A DNA stretch of 40,489 bases from a virus (lineage: Duplodnaviria; Heunggongvirae; Uroviricota; Caudoviricetes): IMG/VR virus record IMGVR_UViG_2693429662_000008; one strand, written 5' to 3'. Shown one piece after another: positions 12,676-33,554 of the stretch. The position numbers were made by a program, and so were the translations under genes. The notes beneath the pieces are model-generated. The model saw only the letters and a program-made list of their open reading frames with translations, did no database searches and was not told where the DNA came from. Every line of letters begins with the position of its first letter. Positions within the stretch are counted from its first letter, which is position 1.

Positions 12676-13389
12676 TTGGATAACAAGGAATATCAGAGGC
12701 ACTTTGGAATAATAACTGATGAATTACAAAAGCCTTCCGATAAACATTTGAGAGCATTTACGCAGGTTGCTGACATTAGAAAGTTTGAAATTGAGATGTA
12801 TTGGAAAAGAGCTACGTATTTCTGGACCATTATTGCTATTACTTTTACTGGTTATTTTGCTTTAGCCTCCGCAAATAGCTTTCCGTTCAAAAATGCATTT
12901 TCTCTTTTGCTTTCCAGTATGGGATCCGTTTTTACTCTTTCATGGTTTTTGGTAAACAGAGGTAGCAAATACTGGCAGGAAAACTGGGAAAATCACTTAG
13001 ACCTGATGGAAAACGGCATAACTGGGCCGCTCTATAAAACTGTACTCTCACGACCGTCAGTCGAAGCCAAAAAAAACGCACCTCAACTTGCGAGTACTGA
13101 TAAAGATTTTATCGACAAACATATCACCGGCCCCAAAAAAATATCAGCATCCAAAATTAACCAATTAGTTGCATTTTACTTGCTTGGCATATGGTTAATA
13201 TTAGTAATGACAACAATTACTAACATCTTAAAACTATCATTCTGGAGTGAATCCACGATAGAAGTAGTGTTGAGCGTGGGAGTTTTAATTTGGTCAGCAA
13301 TAGCCACTAGTTTAATGTTTTGTAAGTCAGCCACCTATACAGGAATACAGACTTCAGAGGCAAGAAAACGCTCTTCGAATTTGTTATAA
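12676..13389 (+). CDS. Cargo gene: predicted 4-TM inner-membrane protein of unknown function (possible abortive-infection or exclusion effector)
   Basis: 237 aa from a TTG start preceded by AAGAGGA. Four hydrophobic segments (about residues 50-68, 75-92, 164-185, 197-215) and a charged N-terminal region. AT-rich, opposite strand to the late operon, sits in the S-V moron slot. Confidence 0.7.
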   Translation: MDNKEYQRHFGIITDELQKPSDKHLRAFTQVADIRKFEIEMYWKRATYFWTIIAITFTGYFALASANSFPFKNAFSLLLSSMGSVFTLSWFLVNRGSKYWQENWENHLDLMENGITGPLYKTVLSRPSVEAKKNAPQLASTDKDFIDKHITGPKKISASKINQLVAFYLLGIWLILVMTTITNILKLSFWSESTIEVVLSVGVLIWSAIATSLMFCKSATYTGIQTSEARKRSSNLL

Positions 13390-13502
13390 CGTTGGTGATA
13401 CACTAATAAATTCATTTAAAGCCCTCAGTTTTGGGGGCATGTAATCTCTACTTTCTCACGGAAAGAGAGTCCAGGATGTACACCAGCGCTTGACGCGGAA
13501 AG

Positions 13503-13600
13503 CTAGTCACTGGTGGCAATACTGCGGGTGCGACATAGACTACGCAGGAAGCGCACAATATCCGGAAAGTAGGTTGTGTTTTCGTGTGGGAAAGGATGCC
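13503..13600 (-). pseudogene. Relic of a second gene V 5' end (degenerate duplicate of the V start region)
   Basis: Minus-strand sequence CATCCTTTCCCACACGAAAACACAACCTACTTTCCGGATATTGTGCGC aligns with the real V start CATCCTTCCCAGCATGAAAACACAATCCACTCTTCAGGACATTCAGCGC. ATG is mutated to ACG and there is a frameshift; similarity continues for roughly 90 nt by eye. Confidence 0.45.
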
Positions 13601-13657
13601 GCCTTAGAAGATCGGCGGCAATAGAGGTATGCAGTTCTATCTCTGGTAAAATTTTGT

Positions 13658-14734
13658 TTATTTTCGTTTGCCATAAGACTGGGTTAGAATTGGAGTAATA
13701 TCCTTAGTAAAGATATCTAGTCTTTCTTTTTCGGCTGAGAAAACATACTGTCTGGCTTGAATTACATTTTGCCTACTAATTAAGTTTGACACCTTTTCTG
13801 GTTTGCTTAGTGCAACTTTGGCACCCTTGAATATCAACGCTAAGCCCGGTGATATTGTAAAAATACATCCATTATCAAATGAAAAATCATTTTTTAAGAA
13901 AATAAAAGGAAAATCACTTGAAACAATGGCATATCCCTTAGGTGCTGAGTACAAATATACCCTACAACTACTCTCATTGGTGATTGAGGAAAAAGGTAAC
14001 GCCATAAATCTATGCATCTTTCTAAGTAAGTAAAACATTTCCCTCCGCTGTCCGCTGTCCGCATTAACTAGATACGTTCCTCCCTCCTTTAGTATAGATA
14101 ACAAAGACCTCCATTCAGAACGTGGGATTATGCTCGCACCAGAAGGAATGAGATCCTTATTAGTATTCAGTACTTTCTTGATGGTGGTGTTTATATTTTT
14201 TAATTTTGGCATGGAGCCTTTATCAAAAAAATCATCCATACCTTTGTTTCTATAACATAAAAAACGGGCCATGAAAATTGCCATGTTTTTTAAATCGTTG
14301 AAATCAATCTCATGCAAACCACTACATACTATCGAACGTGCGAATTTTTTTTCCGAAAGCTTGCCAAGCAACCAGTGTCTACGCACGAAATAATGACTAC
14401 CTGAAGCATTTTTAAAATGCTCCTTTAATTTATAAAATTGCCACATTGCGTCTACAAAATCAGGGTAACAATCCTCTAGTATTTTAAAACTGTCCTCAAT
14501 AAAGTTATCTCTATCCCCATCAATATAAAGAGTATGCCTTCGCTCTTGACCACAAATTTTTGTGGCATTAAGAAAAGTAATCCTTTCTTTTATTTGCTTT
14601 TTGGTGGCATCTGTTTTCACAAAACCATAAACAGTATCTTTCCCAGTCTTTGGGTCTTCAGATGTTATTTTAAAATGCCTGATATAAGTTGCAGGCAGAT
14701 AATGCTGATAGTTTTGAAAAGTTCCCTTTGACAT
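13658..14734 (-). CDS. Cargo gene: DUF4238-like protein, candidate single-gene anti-phage defence protein
   Basis: 358 aa from the ATG at 14734 (GGAGG 5 nt upstream); the ORF track TTG at 14746 is an alternative. N-terminal motif HYLPATYIRHF resembles the conserved start of DUF4238 proteins as I recall them (not verified by HMM). AT-rich, and starts 13 nt after the gene S stop. Confidence 0.75.
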   Translation of the reverse strand: MSKGTFQNYQHYLPATYIRHFKITSEDPKTGKDTVYGFVKTDATKKQIKERITFLNATKICGQERRHTLYIDGDRDNFIEDSFKILEDCYPDFVDAMWQFYKLKEHFKNASGSHYFVRRHWLLGKLSEKKFARSIVCSGLHEIDFNDLKNMAIFMARFLCYRNKGMDDFFDKGSMPKLKNINTTIKKVLNTNKDLIPSGASIIPRSEWRSLLSILKEGGTYLVNADSGQRREMFYLLRKMHRFMALPFSSITNESSCRVYLYSAPKGYAIVSSDFPFIFLKNDFSFDNGCIFTISPGLALIFKGAKVALSKPEKVSNLISRQNVIQARQYVFSAEKERLDIFTKDITPILTQSYGKRK

Positions 14735-23929: not shown

Positions 23930-25147
23930 TTAATTAGCTTTATCAAGGCGTCCCCCCACCACCATCCGCTTGTAATTTATTGCGAACAACTTAATTTTTT
24001 CAGGGAACTTTGACGCCAAAATTATTGACTTTCTGTCTACATATGAATAAAAGGGCATTGATATCAAAATAGTTATCATCGAAGTTAAGATAAATGTAAC
24101 AAACGCACCAACGGACGGCGACGCAATGTTTTTGTAAACCCAAAAACCAACTATAGATATAACAAATGGATGAAGCAAGTATATTGAAAATGACAACTTC
24201 CCAATAAACAAGACTACATTTTTGCTCATCCCCCTTAAACATCTCCCATTCACAAAGACAGAAGCAATAATCAAAAAAGAACCAAGCGATATTGTAAACT
24301 CTGGCCATTGTATTAATATACCGCATTGAAACTGAAGGTAGAGGTAAAATTCAACCAGATCTTTATACGCAGTGCTCGCCGGTGCATACCCAACAAGATA
24401 AAGGCCAATAAACAACATAAGAAGCGATACAAACTTTCTTAACCGTCCATTATTTTCACTTATCTCGAAAGTTGATAAAAACACACCAGAAAGGAAAAGC
24501 CCATAATAAATTACATTAATACTACCAGACAAAAACATGCAAACAAATGAAATAAACGACAACCAGCGAAGAATGGTCTTGTTCTCACCAAACAGAGATA
24601 TAAATCCGTATACCAATATAGAACCAAAAAACTCAATACTAATAGTCCACAGAACATAGTTATACTTTATATTACCAAAAAGCATAGCGCCAAATGAAGC
24701 ATCCCATATGGCTGACACTATATTCCCATCAAAACTAAACGCAGTCATTAACGGCATTGATGCAGCGGGGCTATCCTTATCCGGAAAAAAGCCCAACAAC
24801 ATTATAAAATAGCAAATAATCACAGATGCTGCTACGGGAACCCCAAGCCTAATGTATCTCTTCAATGCTGATGCTTGTATATAACGTATTTCGTTATTAT
24901 TTTTTTGGCAACTCAGTGACAAAACCAACCCGCTCAAAACAAAGAATAAGCTAACAGCAGATCCCCCCTTATAGAAAAAAGTAAAAGGGCTATTAAATAA
25001 ATTTTCTTGCCACTTGCTATCAAACATACTGCCAGAATGCACCGAAGGTATAAACATTAAAAATGAATGCGATAAAACGACAGCCATGGCTGCCACACCT
25101 CTTATCCCATCAAAGATTTTTACATTATTTCTCTCATTATCACTCAT
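23930..25147 (-). CDS. Cargo gene: membrane acyltransferase, acyltransferase-3 family (O-antigen/polysaccharide acetyltransferase-like; probable lysogenic conversion gene)
   Basis: 405 aa, about ten hydrophobic helices, N-terminal FDGIRGVAAMAVVLSHS motif typical of acyltransferase-3 (Oac-like) proteins. Strongly AT-rich; sits between cos and the replication region where P2 carries tin/old. Confidence 0.85.
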   Translation of the reverse strand: MSDNERNNVKIFDGIRGVAAMAVVLSHSFLMFIPSVHSGSMFDSKWQENLFNSPFTFFYKGGSAVSLFFVLSGLVLSLSCQKNNNEIRYIQASALKRYIRLGVPVAASVIICYFIMLLGFFPDKDSPAASMPLMTAFSFDGNIVSAIWDASFGAMLFGNIKYNYVLWTISIEFFGSILVYGFISLFGENKTILRWLSFISFVCMFLSGSINVIYYGLFLSGVFLSTFEISENNGRLRKFVSLLMLFIGLYLVGYAPASTAYKDLVEFYLYLQFQCGILIQWPEFTISLGSFLIIASVFVNGRCLRGMSKNVVLFIGKLSFSIYLLHPFVISIVGFWVYKNIASPSVGAFVTFILTSMITILISMPFYSYVDRKSIILASKFPEKIKLFAINYKRMVVGGRLDKAN

Positions 25148-25440
25148 GCAAAAAACCTTTTATAATAAAAAATGTCATTTCGATTAACGTATTGTATTGG
25201 TTATTATTGTGTTATAACTGACAATCAACCTTAAAAAAACGCGGCATTATAGCACCTTAAGCCTGTTGTATGAATATCATTATTGTTTTGACAGGAAGAG
25301 TTCCGTTTACGCCCCACCTAACCTTCGGAGCACTGAGTAGTGCTCCCAATGAGGTTGGAATAAGGGGAGATTCAAAAAATAGCTGACCATTCTATGCAGG
25401 CAACCCAACTACCAGCATACAACTTGTTTTTTCTCGCAAC

Positions 25441-25623
25441 TTACTCAGCCTTTGTTAATCGTTCTTCAGCATGGGTTGCAGAGAAAACCAGTGAAAAGGA
25501 GTTATTTTTCATCAAGTTGCCTCTCACTATTTCTGCAATCAAATTCAATGCGATTTCACGGTCTCTTTCCTTACAAGTCCCTTCAGCCGTTAGACGCGCA
25601 ATCATTTCGACTCGCTCAATCAT
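25441..25623 (-). CDS. Small ORF under a LexA box (position of the 186 tum antirepressor; possibly truncated)
   Basis: 60 aa from the ATG at 25623 (MIERVEMIARLTAEG...), 46 bp downstream of a consensus LexA box. The longer ORF-track start at 25734 would translate the operator itself and is rejected. Function inferred only from position and regulation. Confidence 0.35.
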   Translation of the reverse strand: MIERVEMIARLTAEGTCKERDREIALNLIAEIVRGNLMKNNSFSLVFSATHAEERLTKAE

Positions 25624-25668
25624 AACGTGCTCACTTAATTCTCTATCCACACAACCTCCACAACGAGA

Positions 25669-25688
25669 TACTGTATAAACATACAGTA
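25669..25688. promoter_or_regulatory. LexA operator (SOS box)
   Basis: TACTGTATAAACATACAGTA: palindromic CTGT-N8-ACAG with flanking TA, close to the consensus TACTGTATATATATACAGTA. Confidence 0.7.
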
Positions 25689-25766
25689 ACACGTGTTGAT
25701 AAAAAATGTGAAGGAAAAAAACCAATAAATACACTGTATGTGCATGATATGGATGAATATTAACGG

Positions 25767-28007
25767 TTATATTTTCATTGCCAGTTCAGTTAAAACCGCA
25801 ACGCGATTGAGGATTTCTGTAGCTTTGGTCTGATGTTCCTTAGCTCTATCTTGATGCGATGGCGCTGCGGAAAATATTTCGCCTTTGGCCGTTCCGCGTA
25901 ACCATTTACCATCAAAACAACTTTTACCACCGACCATCAGGTGCAGGGCTTCGCCCCGGCTGATAACGATGCCAGTTGTCAGATGTATCTCGTCGATAAT
26001 TTTCGCTAAAACTGCGTTTTGCTCATTCGTTCCGTGAATGAATTTTCGCCGTATTTGTGGTTTTTGCTTCCTGAGTCGGTTTGTCAGCTCTCGTCTTTCA
26101 CGTCGACTCAAGGGTTTTGATAAATCGAGTTCCGGTGGATCGCTTTCGCTTCCCGTATAGTTATTGACAGAACTCCGAGAGGGCGCAGGAGCGCCCTTAA
26201 CGTCAACGGCCAAATCAACGGCACGCTTCGGCACAATTTTCCACTGCGTTAACCGGGTTAAAATCGGGGTGCCAGCGCCGACAGCAGAGTCGTAGACGCC
26301 ACGAATGCAGACGGTTTCCTCACCATACTGGTTAAACTCGGGGCGCGGCTCATACAGCGTGCGCACCTGTAAATCATCGCGACAGACAAACGGACCACCC
26401 TGCGCACTAACGTAACCAGCCCAGTCACCGGCGTCAGCGGCATCATGGACGGCAGCAAACTCAACGCTCAGACCGTGCGCGGTCTCGGTATCAGCGAGAC
26501 GACGTAATTCACGGTAGACCGTCACCGGCGCACCGCCGATAAACTGGAACTGACGGATGTGCCAGCGCGCCGCCCATGCTGATACGGCGGGGGCTGTCTC
26601 TTTCAGCAGCTCACCGCTTTCGTCATCGGTTTCACCATCAAGAGCATATCCGTCGATGTTTTTGGAAATGTATTTAGCGACATAGCCGGTAGCGCTGCCC
26701 TTTTCTGGGTCAATGGCTTCGGCATGAAAGCGCGCTTTTTTGGCTTTATCGCTTCTCAGTTCATGGCGGTCTTCCTCCCACGCATAATCACGGATGATGA
26801 GACGCACACTCTCGACGTCTTCCGGCAACATGAACATAAGCATGTGCCAGTGCGGCGTTCCGTCGTGATGAGGCTCAGCAACACGGATGCCGAAAATGCG
26901 GATTTCTTCCCGGTGTAGCTTGGCGCGTATGCGTGCCCAAAGACCGGTTAGATAGCTCTGCGTGTCCGAAGGGCTGGCACCGTTCCATTTGCTATTACGG
27001 TAGCCCGCTTTAGTCGTGGCGTGATATTTAGACGGTGCGGTTAAAGTGTAAAACTCACCGACATAACCGAGCTCATTGCAGATATTTTCAAACCCACGGA
27101 TGCGGGTCATCAGCTCGCAGCGACGTATTGCAGGGTTAGCAACCGAACCATCGTATTTTTCAATCAGACTGATGCGGTTGCCGTCTTCGTCTTCGAGCTC
27201 CAGTCCTTTAAGAAATTCGCGCGTGCGGCGTTTCTGCTCGCGCCAGTCAGTCACGCAGTTTTTACTCGCGTAGGCGTGCTTTTTCTTACTGACGTTGCCA
27301 ACAGCAATTTGTAGATGTTCGCGCCATGCAGACGCAATGCGACGTAAACGACCACGCCACCAAACCTCATTAAACATGCGCATTACTGCCGGTGCGATTT
27401 CATCCTCACCAAAATATTTTTTAGTCACACGCTCCCATTTCGGCGGTGTAACGTTGAATTGCAGGGAAATAAAACCGGCGCGCATGTACCAGGCGTACAG
27501 CGTTTTGAGTTCGCTAAATCCGGTGTCATCAATATCAGCCAGTTCAGCACGAATGAAATTAGCGATATCAGCGGCAAGCAGGTCAATATCAGCGCGCGAC
27601 ATATCCGGGAGGCGGTTAAATCTGGCGACCATATTGACCATGCGTGACGCCAGATATTGCATAAGCTGGGTATCAAAATGACCATCGAAAACAGAGGCTG
27701 ATACATTGCTGTTGATGCCCGAGCACTCATATTTTTTTGCGACGAGTTCAAGACGTGGCAATGCCTTTTTGCAGAAGCTGATTAAAAAGGCATTGGCTCG
27801 TTGACTGCCCTGATTTTGCTCCAGTACCGCAGCGGTACGATAAACATCAAAGCGCACACACTCTGGCTGGAGAGAAAGCACCGTTCTCGCATGCAGCAAA
27901 GCCGCGAACATACGGTCGCGGCGATGCTGTTGGTCATAGGTAAGATATGGGCTGGCTAATGCCGACCGTGGGGCATTCCACGGAAACGCGTAAACTACAC
28001 CCGTCAT
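25767..28007 (-). CDS. A: Replication initiation protein A (P2 gpA family rolling-circle endonuclease)
   Basis: 746 aa; size and position match P2 gpA. Confidence 0.9.
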   Translation of the reverse strand: MTGVVYAFPWNAPRSALASPYLTYDQQHRRDRMFAALLHARTVLSLQPECVRFDVYRTAAVLEQNQGSQRANAFLISFCKKALPRLELVAKKYECSGINSNVSASVFDGHFDTQLMQYLASRMVNMVARFNRLPDMSRADIDLLAADIANFIRAELADIDDTGFSELKTLYAWYMRAGFISLQFNVTPPKWERVTKKYFGEDEIAPAVMRMFNEVWWRGRLRRIASAWREHLQIAVGNVSKKKHAYASKNCVTDWREQKRRTREFLKGLELEDEDGNRISLIEKYDGSVANPAIRRCELMTRIRGFENICNELGYVGEFYTLTAPSKYHATTKAGYRNSKWNGASPSDTQSYLTGLWARIRAKLHREEIRIFGIRVAEPHHDGTPHWHMLMFMLPEDVESVRLIIRDYAWEEDRHELRSDKAKKARFHAEAIDPEKGSATGYVAKYISKNIDGYALDGETDDESGELLKETAPAVSAWAARWHIRQFQFIGGAPVTVYRELRRLADTETAHGLSVEFAAVHDAADAGDWAGYVSAQGGPFVCRDDLQVRTLYEPRPEFNQYGEETVCIRGVYDSAVGAGTPILTRLTQWKIVPKRAVDLAVDVKGAPAPSRSSVNNYTGSESDPPELDLSKPLSRRERRELTNRLRKQKPQIRRKFIHGTNEQNAVLAKIIDEIHLTTGIVISRGEALHLMVGGKSCFDGKWLRGTAKGEIFSAAPSHQDRAKEHQTKATEILNRVAVLTELAMKI

Positions 28008-30207: not shown

Positions 30208-30783
30208 TTGATACTTGATACTCAGGTGAATAACGACGAGTTACTGGATAGAATCTGTCAAGTATATGGTTTTACTCAAAAAATCCAGCTAGCCCGGCAT
30301 TTCAATATTGCCGCCAGTTCCCTACAAAACCGCTACACGCGAGGCACTGTTTCTTATGATTTTGCCGTACAGTGCGCATTAGAAACCGGGGCAAGCCTAC
30401 TATGGCTTCTTACGGGGCAAGGCTCTCAATATGACGGCAAAAAGTCTCCAACGGATCCGAAAACGATAGACGCCTTCACTCTTAGTGATGGAAAGCTCGA
30501 AGAAAATTCACCATTGAGTATTGATGCTGGTTTCTTTAGTAAGCAAATGTCAAAAGGTATTGCTGTTCGCGCCGATGGAAAGCTGCACTTTATAGAACAA
30601 GATGCCTCACTTTCTGATGGCCTTTGGTTGGTTGATATTGAGGGGGCTACCAGCATCAGAGAATTGACGCTCCTACCCGGTAAAAAGTTACACGTTGCTG
30701 GCGGCAAAGTACCGTTTGAGTGCGGGATAGATGAGATAAAAACGATTGGCCGTGTAGTGGGTGTATACAGCGAGGTTAATTGA
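30208..30783 (+). CDS. cI: CI immunity repressor (186 CI type)
   Basis: 191 aa; helix-turn-helix region (QKIQLARHFNIAASSLQNRYTRG) and conserved C-terminal domain (LSDGLWLVDIEGATSIRELT...GRVVGVYSEVN). TTG start with AAAGGA 7 nt upstream; a GTG at 30226 is an alternative. Confidence 0.85.
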   Translation: MILDTQVNNDELLDRICQVYGFTQKIQLARHFNIAASSLQNRYTRGTVSYDFAVQCALETGASLLWLLTGQGSQYDGKKSPTDPKTIDAFTLSDGKLEENSPLSIDAGFFSKQMSKGIAVRADGKLHFIEQDASLSDGLWLVDIEGATSIRELTLLPGKKLHVAGGKVPFECGIDEIKTIGRVVGVYSEVN

Positions 30784-31797: not shown

Positions 31798-33261
31798 TCA
31801 TTTGCCGAGCATCTCTCTTAAATCTTGAGCCCAATGCGTATCGTCAGATTGGATCGTTCCTTCAACATCAGTAAGCAGTTTTTGCTCAAGAATTGTCTCG
31901 GCATTTCGACTCTGGCTAAAGTATCTTACCGTTTCGGCAAAGTCCCAATTCTCATCTGCAAGCAGGCGCGGCTGGAAAGAATGACAGTAGATTGCAGCTA
32001 TATCTTTACCCATAAAGTCAAAATCAGAAATCAATTCGCAAATTTTCATATCACGTGCAAATTCGATCTGAGGGCCATGCAAGGTTTCATATCCAATATG
32101 AATTATTGTTGATTCTCCAATCGGAGCCTGCTTTACAGCCTGAACAAGTACCCTTTTTATATCTTTTGCCTTTTTATCGACAGACTCATCAGCGAGACAA
32201 ATCCATTTTGCGCAGAAAGGCATTTCTATCTCATCAATGAATACATTTATTGTACTAAGTTCATCATTGCTAAAAGTGCATAACTTTGCGTTGCAAACCA
32301 TTGTATAACTTCCAAACGGGTCATACTGGTCATCTAATAAGGAATTTAATTGAGGAGAAGGATATTTCACATGCCACTTTCTTAAGTGGTTATCCACCCG
32401 TTCCATATCAATTAAGTTAGCCTGAACCAAAATATCATCGCTCTCACATACTGCAATCTTACCTTTCACAAGATGATCAGAGCCGTAAATTTTTGCTACA
32501 GCACCGAGAAACACATCGATACGCGTTTTTACTATTTCAGTTTTGAAAATCACATCAAAAAAAACTGGCTTATGGTATCGAGTAATCAATGGTCGAGCCA
32601 TTTCCCACCGCTTCAACCACTCCGCCCTTTCTTCTTCTGAGTACTGAGTCACCTTTGCTAATCGCTTGCACTCAACATAAAAAATATCAGTGCCTTTAAC
32701 AACTTTGAGGTCTGGTGTTTTATGAGCTCCTGTTTCTGGAATGAACTCAACTTCCCAGCCATTTTTCAAATAGCAGATAGCCACAACCAACTCAAACAAA
32801 ATGGAATCAGGCTGGTTGATTGTCTTAACAAGCAAGTCATTTAATTTGGATTCAATACCTTTGACCTGCTTCAACTTTTCGCTATGTTCACCGATAACTG
32901 CGAAAAAATGCCAAATTCTTGACGACTGAGCTGGCTCATCTACTGTTGGGCGATCAGCCAAAGATTCAACTAAGTACAAATACCATGCAATCCAGTCATC
33001 ATAGAATGCCAGGCGTGCATCTTTCTCATGGAAAGAAACGTCAGATTTTCCTGTGAAAAGGCGCTCCGACATTTCGCGGAAGTAAGCCAAAACCGCCCCA
33101 CGACGCTCAACCCATTTATCTTCACCCATTACATCAATAAACCAACGGTATGCTGTTTTTATCTCTTTGACTAATGGTGCATCATGTCTATGATTGAAGC
33201 GTTCAAAAAATGCAGCATACTCATCTTCAACACTCTGATTTTTGGTATTTTTTTCACCCAT
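31798..33261 (-). CDS. Cargo gene: large protein with a PD-(D/E)xK nuclease motif, candidate defence/abortive-infection nuclease
   Basis: 487 aa from the ATG at 33261 (AGGTGGA upstream; the ORF-track start at 33294 is an alternative). Motif FELVVAICYLKNGWEVEF...TPDLKVVKGTDIFYVECKRL fits the E...PD...(D/E)xK pattern. No P-loop seen. AT-rich; lies between int and the distal att core, convergent with int. Confidence 0.75.
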   Translation of the reverse strand: MGEKNTKNQSVEDEYAAFFERFNHRHDAPLVKEIKTAYRWFIDVMGEDKWVERRGAVLAYFREMSERLFTGKSDVSFHEKDARLAFYDDWIAWYLYLVESLADRPTVDEPAQSSRIWHFFAVIGEHSEKLKQVKGIESKLNDLLVKTINQPDSILFELVVAICYLKNGWEVEFIPETGAHKTPDLKVVKGTDIFYVECKRLAKVTQYSEEERAEWLKRWEMARPLITRYHKPVFFDVIFKTEIVKTRIDVFLGAVAKIYGSDHLVKGKIAVCESDDILVQANLIDMERVDNHLRKWHVKYPSPQLNSLLDDQYDPFGSYTMVCNAKLCTFSNDELSTINVFIDEIEMPFCAKWICLADESVDKKAKDIKRVLVQAVKQAPIGESTIIHIGYETLHGPQIEFARDMKICELISDFDFMGKDIAAIYCHSFQPRLLADENWDFAETVRYFSQSRNAETILEQKLLTDVEGTIQSDDTHWAQDLREMLGK

Positions 33262-33505
33262 CGTGATTCCACCTAGCTTATGCGGTTTATGCATTCAAGA
33301 TTAACTAACTTGCATGTTATCATTTTTGATATCAGGCAAGTGTTAGTCACGCTATAAAGGCTAGGTTGCCGTTTAAAGGCAATATGATAAGTGGCGATAA
33401 AGTGGCGGTAGAAATGGCTGATAATGTCTAATCACTGGCAAACGCTGGCCATTTATGTCAATGATAAATAAAGCAAACTATTGATTTTCGGTTGTTCAGG
33501 TAGGA

Positions 33506-33554
33506 ACTCATAATCGCTTGGTCGCTGGTTCAAGTCCAGCAAGGGCCACCAAAT
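33506..33554. repeat. Prophage attachment core (distal copy, partial tRNA 3' end)
   Basis: Direct repeat of 1605-1653 with one mismatch; sequence upstream of it is unrelated to the tRNA 5' half, so this is a partial tRNA duplicate typical of integration into a tRNA gene. Confidence 0.85.

Follow-up and report, generated by a model that had tools for sequence, protein, structure and literature searches.

A short Tum-like gene under a LexA box as the probable SOS induction switch of a 186-like prophage of Escherichia coli

The DNA analyzed here, a stretch of 40,489 nucleotides (IMG/VR record IMGVR_UViG_2693429662_000008) to which we refer as the window, carries a 186-like (Eganvirus-type) prophage of E. 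coli integrated at tRNA-Ile. The prophage context was taken from the annotation that PGAP gives for an identical RefSeq chromosome. The element spans from tRNA-Ile (1575 to 1650), the attachment site of 186, to a tRNA remnant (33447 to 33551), and its complement of P2/186 genes for structure, lysis, replication, and immunity is complete, the sole pseudogene call made by PGAP being a fragment of tum. On the minus strand, gene A (25767 to 28007), which encodes a rolling-circle replicase of 746 aa (Pfam Phage_GPA, E = 1.9e-135) that PGAP names a replication endonuclease, is the upstream neighbor of this small gene, which we call tumA-like. The immunity repressor gene (30208 to 30783, plus strand; PGAP, phage repressor protein CI) encodes a 191-aa CI (66% identity with the CI of 186 across 184 aa; E = 4e-97), and it lies alongside apl, cII, and int in the 186 gene order. 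This CI is the presumed target of the antirepressor discussed below.

DNA homology to 186 in the gene A region (window 25767 to 25900; positions 1695 to 1797 of our 186 sequence, L001) continues up to the stop codon of the 746-aa gene, and the gene A of the 186 record (694 aa) ends ~135 nt earlier than its homolog in the window. Either the C terminus of gene A differs between the phages or there is a frame difference in the old 186 annotation or sequence. Elsewhere in the prophage, a second cargo island (12676 to 14734) sits between baseplate gene V and the tail-completion genes and carries genes for a RipA-family octameric membrane protein (12676 to 13389, opposite strand) and a 358-aa hypothetical protein (13658 to 14734). 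A gene for a 487-aa hypothetical protein (31798 to 33261), flanked by int and the attR tRNA remnant, is probably a third prophage cargo gene.

A sensitive DNA search of a phage collection matched coliphage 186 to window positions 25449 to 25800 at 84.5% identity, and the 186 features lying under this match are tum, the promoter p95, and the LexA site. The tumA-like gene (25441 to 25650, minus strand) reads from a GTG codon at 25650 to a TAA stop codon at 25441 to 25443 and would specify a 69-aa protein corresponding to the N-terminal (antirepressor) module of Tum. This protein, which is presumably synthesized, is 82% identical to residues 1 to 67 of 186 Tum (E = 2e-39), contains all of the family-invariant residues of the Tum N-module, and is identical in the two divergent copies that we examined.

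The preliminary description of this DNA had placed under LexA control a 60-aa ORF lying 46 nt from the box and next to the replication gene. That ORF exists, opening at an internal in-frame ATG codon (25621 to 25623, minus strand) 46 nt past the LexA box and ending at the same TAA, with gene A upstream (the distance stated for the ORF downstream of gene A is 24 nt), but as the start of the gene its ATG did not hold up, and the first nine residues of the N-module lie outside it. Comparison with homologs indicates that the gene most likely starts at GTG 25650, which is the start used by PGAP and the annotated start of 186 Tum, and nearly all of the ~135 related loci also use GTG. Because this is the homologous start, we take the product to be 69 aa in length. 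Since ATG 25623 aligns with the start of Tum95.2, which in the 186 record begins 27 nt after the Tum start and modulates SOS induction, the 69-aa reading is the relevant one. The product is in any case shorter than 186 Tum, as the preliminary description had said, and the length of 146 aa that it gave for Tum is correct.

Among profile collections, PHROGs alone recognized the protein, which matched positions 1 to 67 of the 151 positions of phrog_189 (E = 2e-32); Pfam and NCBIfam searches with the 60-aa ORF and a 97-aa ORF gave no matches. An AlphaFold2 model computed from 44 homologs has a mean pLDDT of 71, rising to ~85 over residues 11 to 40, and predicts two helices (residues 7 to 22 and 28 to 48) followed by a disordered tail with a conserved FSxVFS motif. 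A sequence search of the PDB recovered no related solved structure, only designed helical repeats at weak E values. PGAP labels the gene a "DinI family" pseudogene that is incomplete, with its C terminus missing. To judge from the matches given here and below, this RefSeq label misdescribes the fragment, in which only the non-DinI antirepressor part of Tum is present.

The LexA (SOS) box TACTGTATAAACATACAGTA occupies positions 25669 to 25688 and reads TACTGTATGTTTATACAGTA on the coding (minus) strand. It departs from the palindromic LexA consensus TACTGTATATATATACAGTA at two positions, a match that 100 dinucleotide shuffles of the window never equaled, and it is the single occurrence of CTGT-N8-ACAG in all 40.5 kb. 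Pairwise alignment showed that TACTGTATGTTTATACAGTA is the annotated LexA site of 186 p95 at 20 of 20 positions. Aligned with the annotated p95 elements of 186 are a -35 hexamer, TTCACA (25707 to 25712, minus strand), and, 18 nt after it, a -10 hexamer, TACTGT (25683 to 25688, minus strand), which forms the first six bases of the LexA box. A Shine-Dalgarno sequence read directly from the DNA, GGAGG (25655 to 25659, minus strand), stands 4 nt before the GTG codon and is conserved in related loci; the GTG itself lies 18 nt past the box. The -35 and -10 hexamers, the length of the 18-nt spacer, the GGAGG, and the GTG start are all collinear with 186.

The same arrangement recurs upstream of related tum genes. 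CTGT-N8-ACAG was found upstream of the tum start in 133 of 139 related loci, with the end of the box usually 18 nt before the start. We compared promoters in 96 distinct related upstream sequences, 84 of which have the box in register; all of these 84 share the -10 TACTGT, and the hexamer seen most often at the matching -35 spacing is TTCACA (56 sequences). With an operator overlapping the -10 element, gene A upstream, and the portal/cos region downstream, the layout is that of 186. The candidate operator at 25669 to 25688 is one that LexA would be expected to occupy. The near-consensus box reported in the preliminary description was therefore confirmed, and its proposal of an induction switch of the 186 type gained support: the region is a homolog of p95-tum with a matching position, an identical operator, and an 82%-identical protein.

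The domain assignment of Tum rests on Lemire et al. 2011 (PMC3121763) and on GenBank notes. Tum resembles an antirepressor fused to DinI, and in Fels-2 and PSP3 a stop codon splits the two halves (PMC3121763). Absent from the window relative to 186 are Tum residues ~70 to 146 (the DinI-like module), orf97, and the terminators t95a and t95b. Pfam DinI (PF06183) did not match the tumA-like protein at E ≤ 1, and a custom DinI HMM, built from 94 fused Tum genes together with PSP3 TumB and E. coli DinI, found nothing in the six frames of the whole window. Of the two comparisons put forward in the preliminary description, the one with Tum thus revealed similarity, whereas the Pfam and HMM searches disclosed none to DinI proper. 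Its suggestion that the antirepressor itself might be truncated or replaced was not borne out, as the whole N-module is kept and it is the DinI-like module and orf97 that have been lost instead.

We aligned the end of the gene with the nearest fused relatives, one split relative, and PSP3. The TAA codon falls directly before the internal GTG of the fused genes, which in 186 is the start of Tum95.5. The next stretch (25416 to 25440, minus strand) appears to be a decayed start of the DinI-like (tumB/Tum95.5) part, with tum homology ending at the cargo junction: when the 24 nt past the stop were compared in register with the 94 fused tum genes, the median identity was 13/24, against 6.2/24 in an out-of-register control, and only 0.08% of the controls reached the in-register median. 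Since in-register homology runs ~24 nt past it, the stop codon precedes the cargo junction (~25416), and we rejected the idea that the junction had created the stop. In its last residues (KAE-stop) the window protein is similar to PSP3 TumA (KAD-stop, followed by the tumB start). It also retains 12 linker residues of the kind found in fused genes, and these residues, together with the decayed tumB start, suggest that the loss was independent and more recent.

Where 186 has orf97, the window carries, on the same strand as tumA and 293 nt downstream of it, a cargo gene (23930 to 25147, minus strand) for a 405-aa Acyl_transf_3 acyltransferase (Pfam PF01757, E = 3.9e-25). The preliminary description had spoken of an AT-rich acyltransferase insert immediately after the small gene, and we agree: the G+C content of the acyltransferase region is 33 to 39%, compared with 52 to 61% in the flanks, and the insert replaces the downstream part of the 186 operon. 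The cargo was confined to the 37 complete E. coli genomes in which this prophage allele occurs, and the cos-proximal sequence beside it is common to ~935 genomes. In the interval separating tumA from the acyltransferase gene (25148 to 25440), a terminator scan, of a simple kind that can miss terminators, revealed no terminator-like site, and it is possible that p95 transcripts read into the acyltransferase gene. Ahead of that gene there is also a sigma-70-like site with an extended -10 (TTCATA-17-TATAAT, 25274 to 25246).

We considered and rejected an RNA element in the same interval (25148 to 25440), which folded no better than its shuffles (z = 0.48); Rfam had no match there and one subthreshold match elsewhere. 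The cargo side of this intergenic region does contain a perfect 8-bp hairpin, GGAGCACT-GAGT-AGTGCTCC (25327 to 25346), with no run of T residues on either strand and no Rfam match. In one of three E. coli prophages with a full-length 186-type tum gene (L006, NZ_CP048821.1), genes for a reverse transcriptase family protein and an HTH protein lie downstream of tum (positions 351 to 1587 of the extracted locus) and are probably retron-type defense cargo. The slot downstream of tum is a general cargo hot spot.

A protein search with the tumA-like product returned mostly short proteins of 63 to 117 aa (NCBI calls several of these "Tum protein"), which share a highly conserved core of ~57 residues and differ in their short tails. 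We surveyed 52 loci of species-representative genomes together with 80 viral-contig loci, classifying them by tblastn and the DinI HMM. The 52 species-level loci included 24 fused 146-aa genes, 3 split genes with an adjacent DinI ORF, and at least 17 with the N-module alone (63 to 89 aa, most of them 63 to 72 aa), the remaining 8 being uninformative because of a short flank or a broken alignment. Around these 17, tblastn and the DinI HMM detected no DinI-like ORF within ~4 kb. Nearly all of the species-level loci have a LexA box, and N-module-only genes follow gene A with unrelated cargo downstream, such as a DNA methylase gene in Salmonella or an nSTAND-type gene elsewhere.

Selection was estimated by the Nei-Gojobori method on codons 2 to 57. 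The median omega was 0.12 for N-module-only genes and 0.05 for fused genes; as judged by these values, the stand-alone N-module is in general a maintained gene under purifying selection. The nearest relatives of the window protein (85 to 88% amino acid identity) are fused 146-aa genes, which implies that the short form is derived. Compared with its 20 nearest relatives (19 fused, 1 split), the N-domain in the window shows 11 to 18 synonymous and 2 to 9.5 nonsynonymous changes, giving omega values of 0.02 to 0.12 that cannot be placed on the branch that follows the truncation. Nor can dN/dS date the truncation, as the fused relatives found are not close ones (dS of 0.4 to 0.75).

Among 5,426 E. 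coli complete genomes, 40 have a 186-type tum gene: 37, mostly clinical, carry the short allele with the acyltransferase, and the other 3 have a full-length tum accompanied by different cargo. The short allele occupies similar chromosome positions in most of the 37 genomes, a pattern consistent with vertical inheritance and silent on mobility. In 7 of them an ISKox3 (ISL3-family) element lies inside the LexA box, as exemplified by L146 (NZ_CM136163.1, positions 2329 to 3644 of the extracted locus). Its 8-bp target duplication, ATAAACAT, corresponds to window positions 25675 to 25682, the central spacer of CTGT-N8-ACAG, so that the insertion splits the operator into two half-sites and moves the p95 -35 and -10 elements ~1.3 kb away from tumA. 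The insertion may lock or rewire induction in those seven strains, and the AT-rich palindrome may be a preferred ISL3 target.

Taken together, the features of this locus suggest that it is probably the SOS induction switch of the 186-like prophage and that it still works, perhaps with altered induction kinetics. In the lysogen, LexA bound at the operator overlapping the p95-type -10 element would silence tumA. DNA damage would lead to LexA cleavage, the p95-type promoter would fire, and the 69-aa protein would be made from GTG 25650, possibly along with a 60-aa isoform from ATG 25623. This protein, the putative N-terminal antirepressor module of Tum with a predicted two-helix hairpin and an FSxVFS tail, would bind CI and block its binding to the CI operators, with the result that pR would be derepressed and lytic growth would follow. 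By analogy with PSP3, we infer that the 69-aa protein could inactivate CI without the DinI half: with an acyltransferase gene standing in place of the lost DinI-like module and orf97, the gene resembles a PSP3 tumA without its tumB. In the relevant passage of Lemire et al. (PMC3121763), which relays what G. E. Christie had communicated personally (cited via Bunny et al. 2002), the antirepressor activity of PSP3 is assigned to the upstream, N-terminal gene alone. This assignment, and the finding that at least 17 of the 52 relatives have only the N-half, with a LexA box and under purifying selection, are our reasons for thinking that the switch is probably functional. Because truncated Tum products modulate induction according to the 186 record, loss of the DinI part may shift the threshold or the kinetics.

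The same truncation can be read in the opposite sense. The insertion or deletion that accompanied the cargo might have left a nonfunctional fragment of tum, the LexA box and promoter being recent relics, in which case DNA damage would no longer induce the prophage and it would be locked in the chromosome. PGAP calls the gene an incomplete pseudogene, its closest relatives are full-length fused genes, and both orf97 and the DinI part are gone; moreover, the occurrence of the 37 carriers mostly at similar coordinates fits vertical inheritance, and the operator is split by the insertion sequence in 7 of them at no apparent cost to the host. Nevertheless, we consider a dead switch, although it is the chief rival reading, rather unlikely. 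The antirepressor module, start codon, Shine-Dalgarno sequence, promoter, and operator are all intact and identical to or collinear with those of 186, and the part that is missing is one reported, in the passage on PSP3 cited above, to be without antirepressor activity. In other genera, moreover, genes with the N-module alone are common and evolve under purifying selection, and the protein does not differ between the divergent copies examined.

A switch that is alive might serve another end. If read-through from p95 made a surface-modifying acyltransferase inducible by DNA damage, the cargo could be the main output of the promoter and the small protein only a modulator like Tum95.2. The acyltransferase gene is indeed on the same strand only 293 nt downstream, in the place of an orf97 that in 186 is cotranscribed from p95, and no terminator-like site was seen in between. 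This reading nonetheless strikes us as highly improbable, as the acyltransferase gene has a good sigma-70-like site of its own (the extended -10 site noted above), the simple scan could have missed a terminator, and the pairing of operator and gene is kept across ~130 loci despite many different downstream cargos. It is because of this conserved pairing that we assign the box to tumA and not to the cargo.

A broader view of the family can be offered only tentatively, and we regard it as doubtful: the N-terminal hairpin of ~57 residues with its FSxVFS tail might be an autonomous, minimal LexA-controlled antirepressor to which the DinI fusion of 186 is an optional addition that has been shed repeatedly, and in this E. 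coli lineage read-through from p95 could make modification of the cell surface inducible by DNA damage alongside prophage induction. The survey does show that the Tum antirepressor module very often occurs without any DinI partner. That the N-module is so often alone fits the split in PSP3 and Fels-2 and suggests no more than a tuning role in induction for the DinI half. An N-only tum is an ordinary variant in many related prophages, and the system is of a known kind already annotated in RefSeq; these results leave the understanding of the 186-type switch unchanged. What they correct is an annotation, a "DinI family" pseudogene becoming the non-DinI antirepressor part of Tum. They also bear on whether DNA-damaging agents, antibiotics included, can still induce the 186-like prophage of the mostly clinical E. 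coli carriers, to which the answer is probably yes.

A close known counterpart is the SOS operon of 186, with which the locus shares its position between gene A and cos, the 20-bp operator, integration at tRNA-Ile, and a 186-type CI. The two differ in that 186 has a 146-aa Tum with a DinI-like module, orf97 cotranscribed from p95, terminator t95a after tum, and t95b (186 record), whereas the window has a 69-aa product and an Acyl_transf_3 cargo gene. Dependence on such a switch has been described for a P2-like prophage of E. coli HS, in which deletion of tum or a noncleavable LexA abolishes induction by mitomycin C (PMC12055606). The likeness to DinI (PF06183), a RecA-filament-binding protein, is one of label only, arising from the PGAP name and the DinI name of phrog_189; the match of the window protein is confined to the non-DinI part of that profile (positions 1 to 67 of 151).

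Similar in architecture are the split tum genes of PSP3 (tumA/tumB) and Fels-2 (STM2728/STM2726.1). The PSP3 record lists a 60-aa tumA, annotated "UV induction of prophage," plus tumB, and Fels-2 has an equivalent pair. As in the window, a separate antirepressor gene (60 to 62 aa in these two phages) with a LexA box follows gene A, and the stop codon at the domain boundary is shared. In PSP3 and Fels-2 a DinI-like gene lies directly downstream, whereas the window has none anywhere, only the ~24 nt of decayed tumB start. BLASTP aligned the window protein weakly with PSP3 TumA (35% identity across 31 aa; pairwise E = 3e-6), hhalign gave the pair a probability of 82%, and similarity to the Fels-2 protein was marginal (E = 0.003). 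A tblastn search of the phage collection recovered neither PSP3 nor Fels-2. As the similarity is this distant, PSP3 provides a precedent of architecture and not a close ortholog. The TumA-only genes of other enterobacterial P2/186-like prophages, which NCBI names "Tum protein" (63 to 72 aa), share with the window an N-module standing alone, a LexA box ~18 nt before a GTG start, the lack of a DinI-like ORF within 4 kb, and variable cargo; most of them end earlier than the gene described here (63 to 65 aa, "...FSAxPxxK"), and their hosts include Salmonella, Kluyvera, Buttiauxella, Edwardsiella, Erwinia, Pantoea, and Siccibacter.
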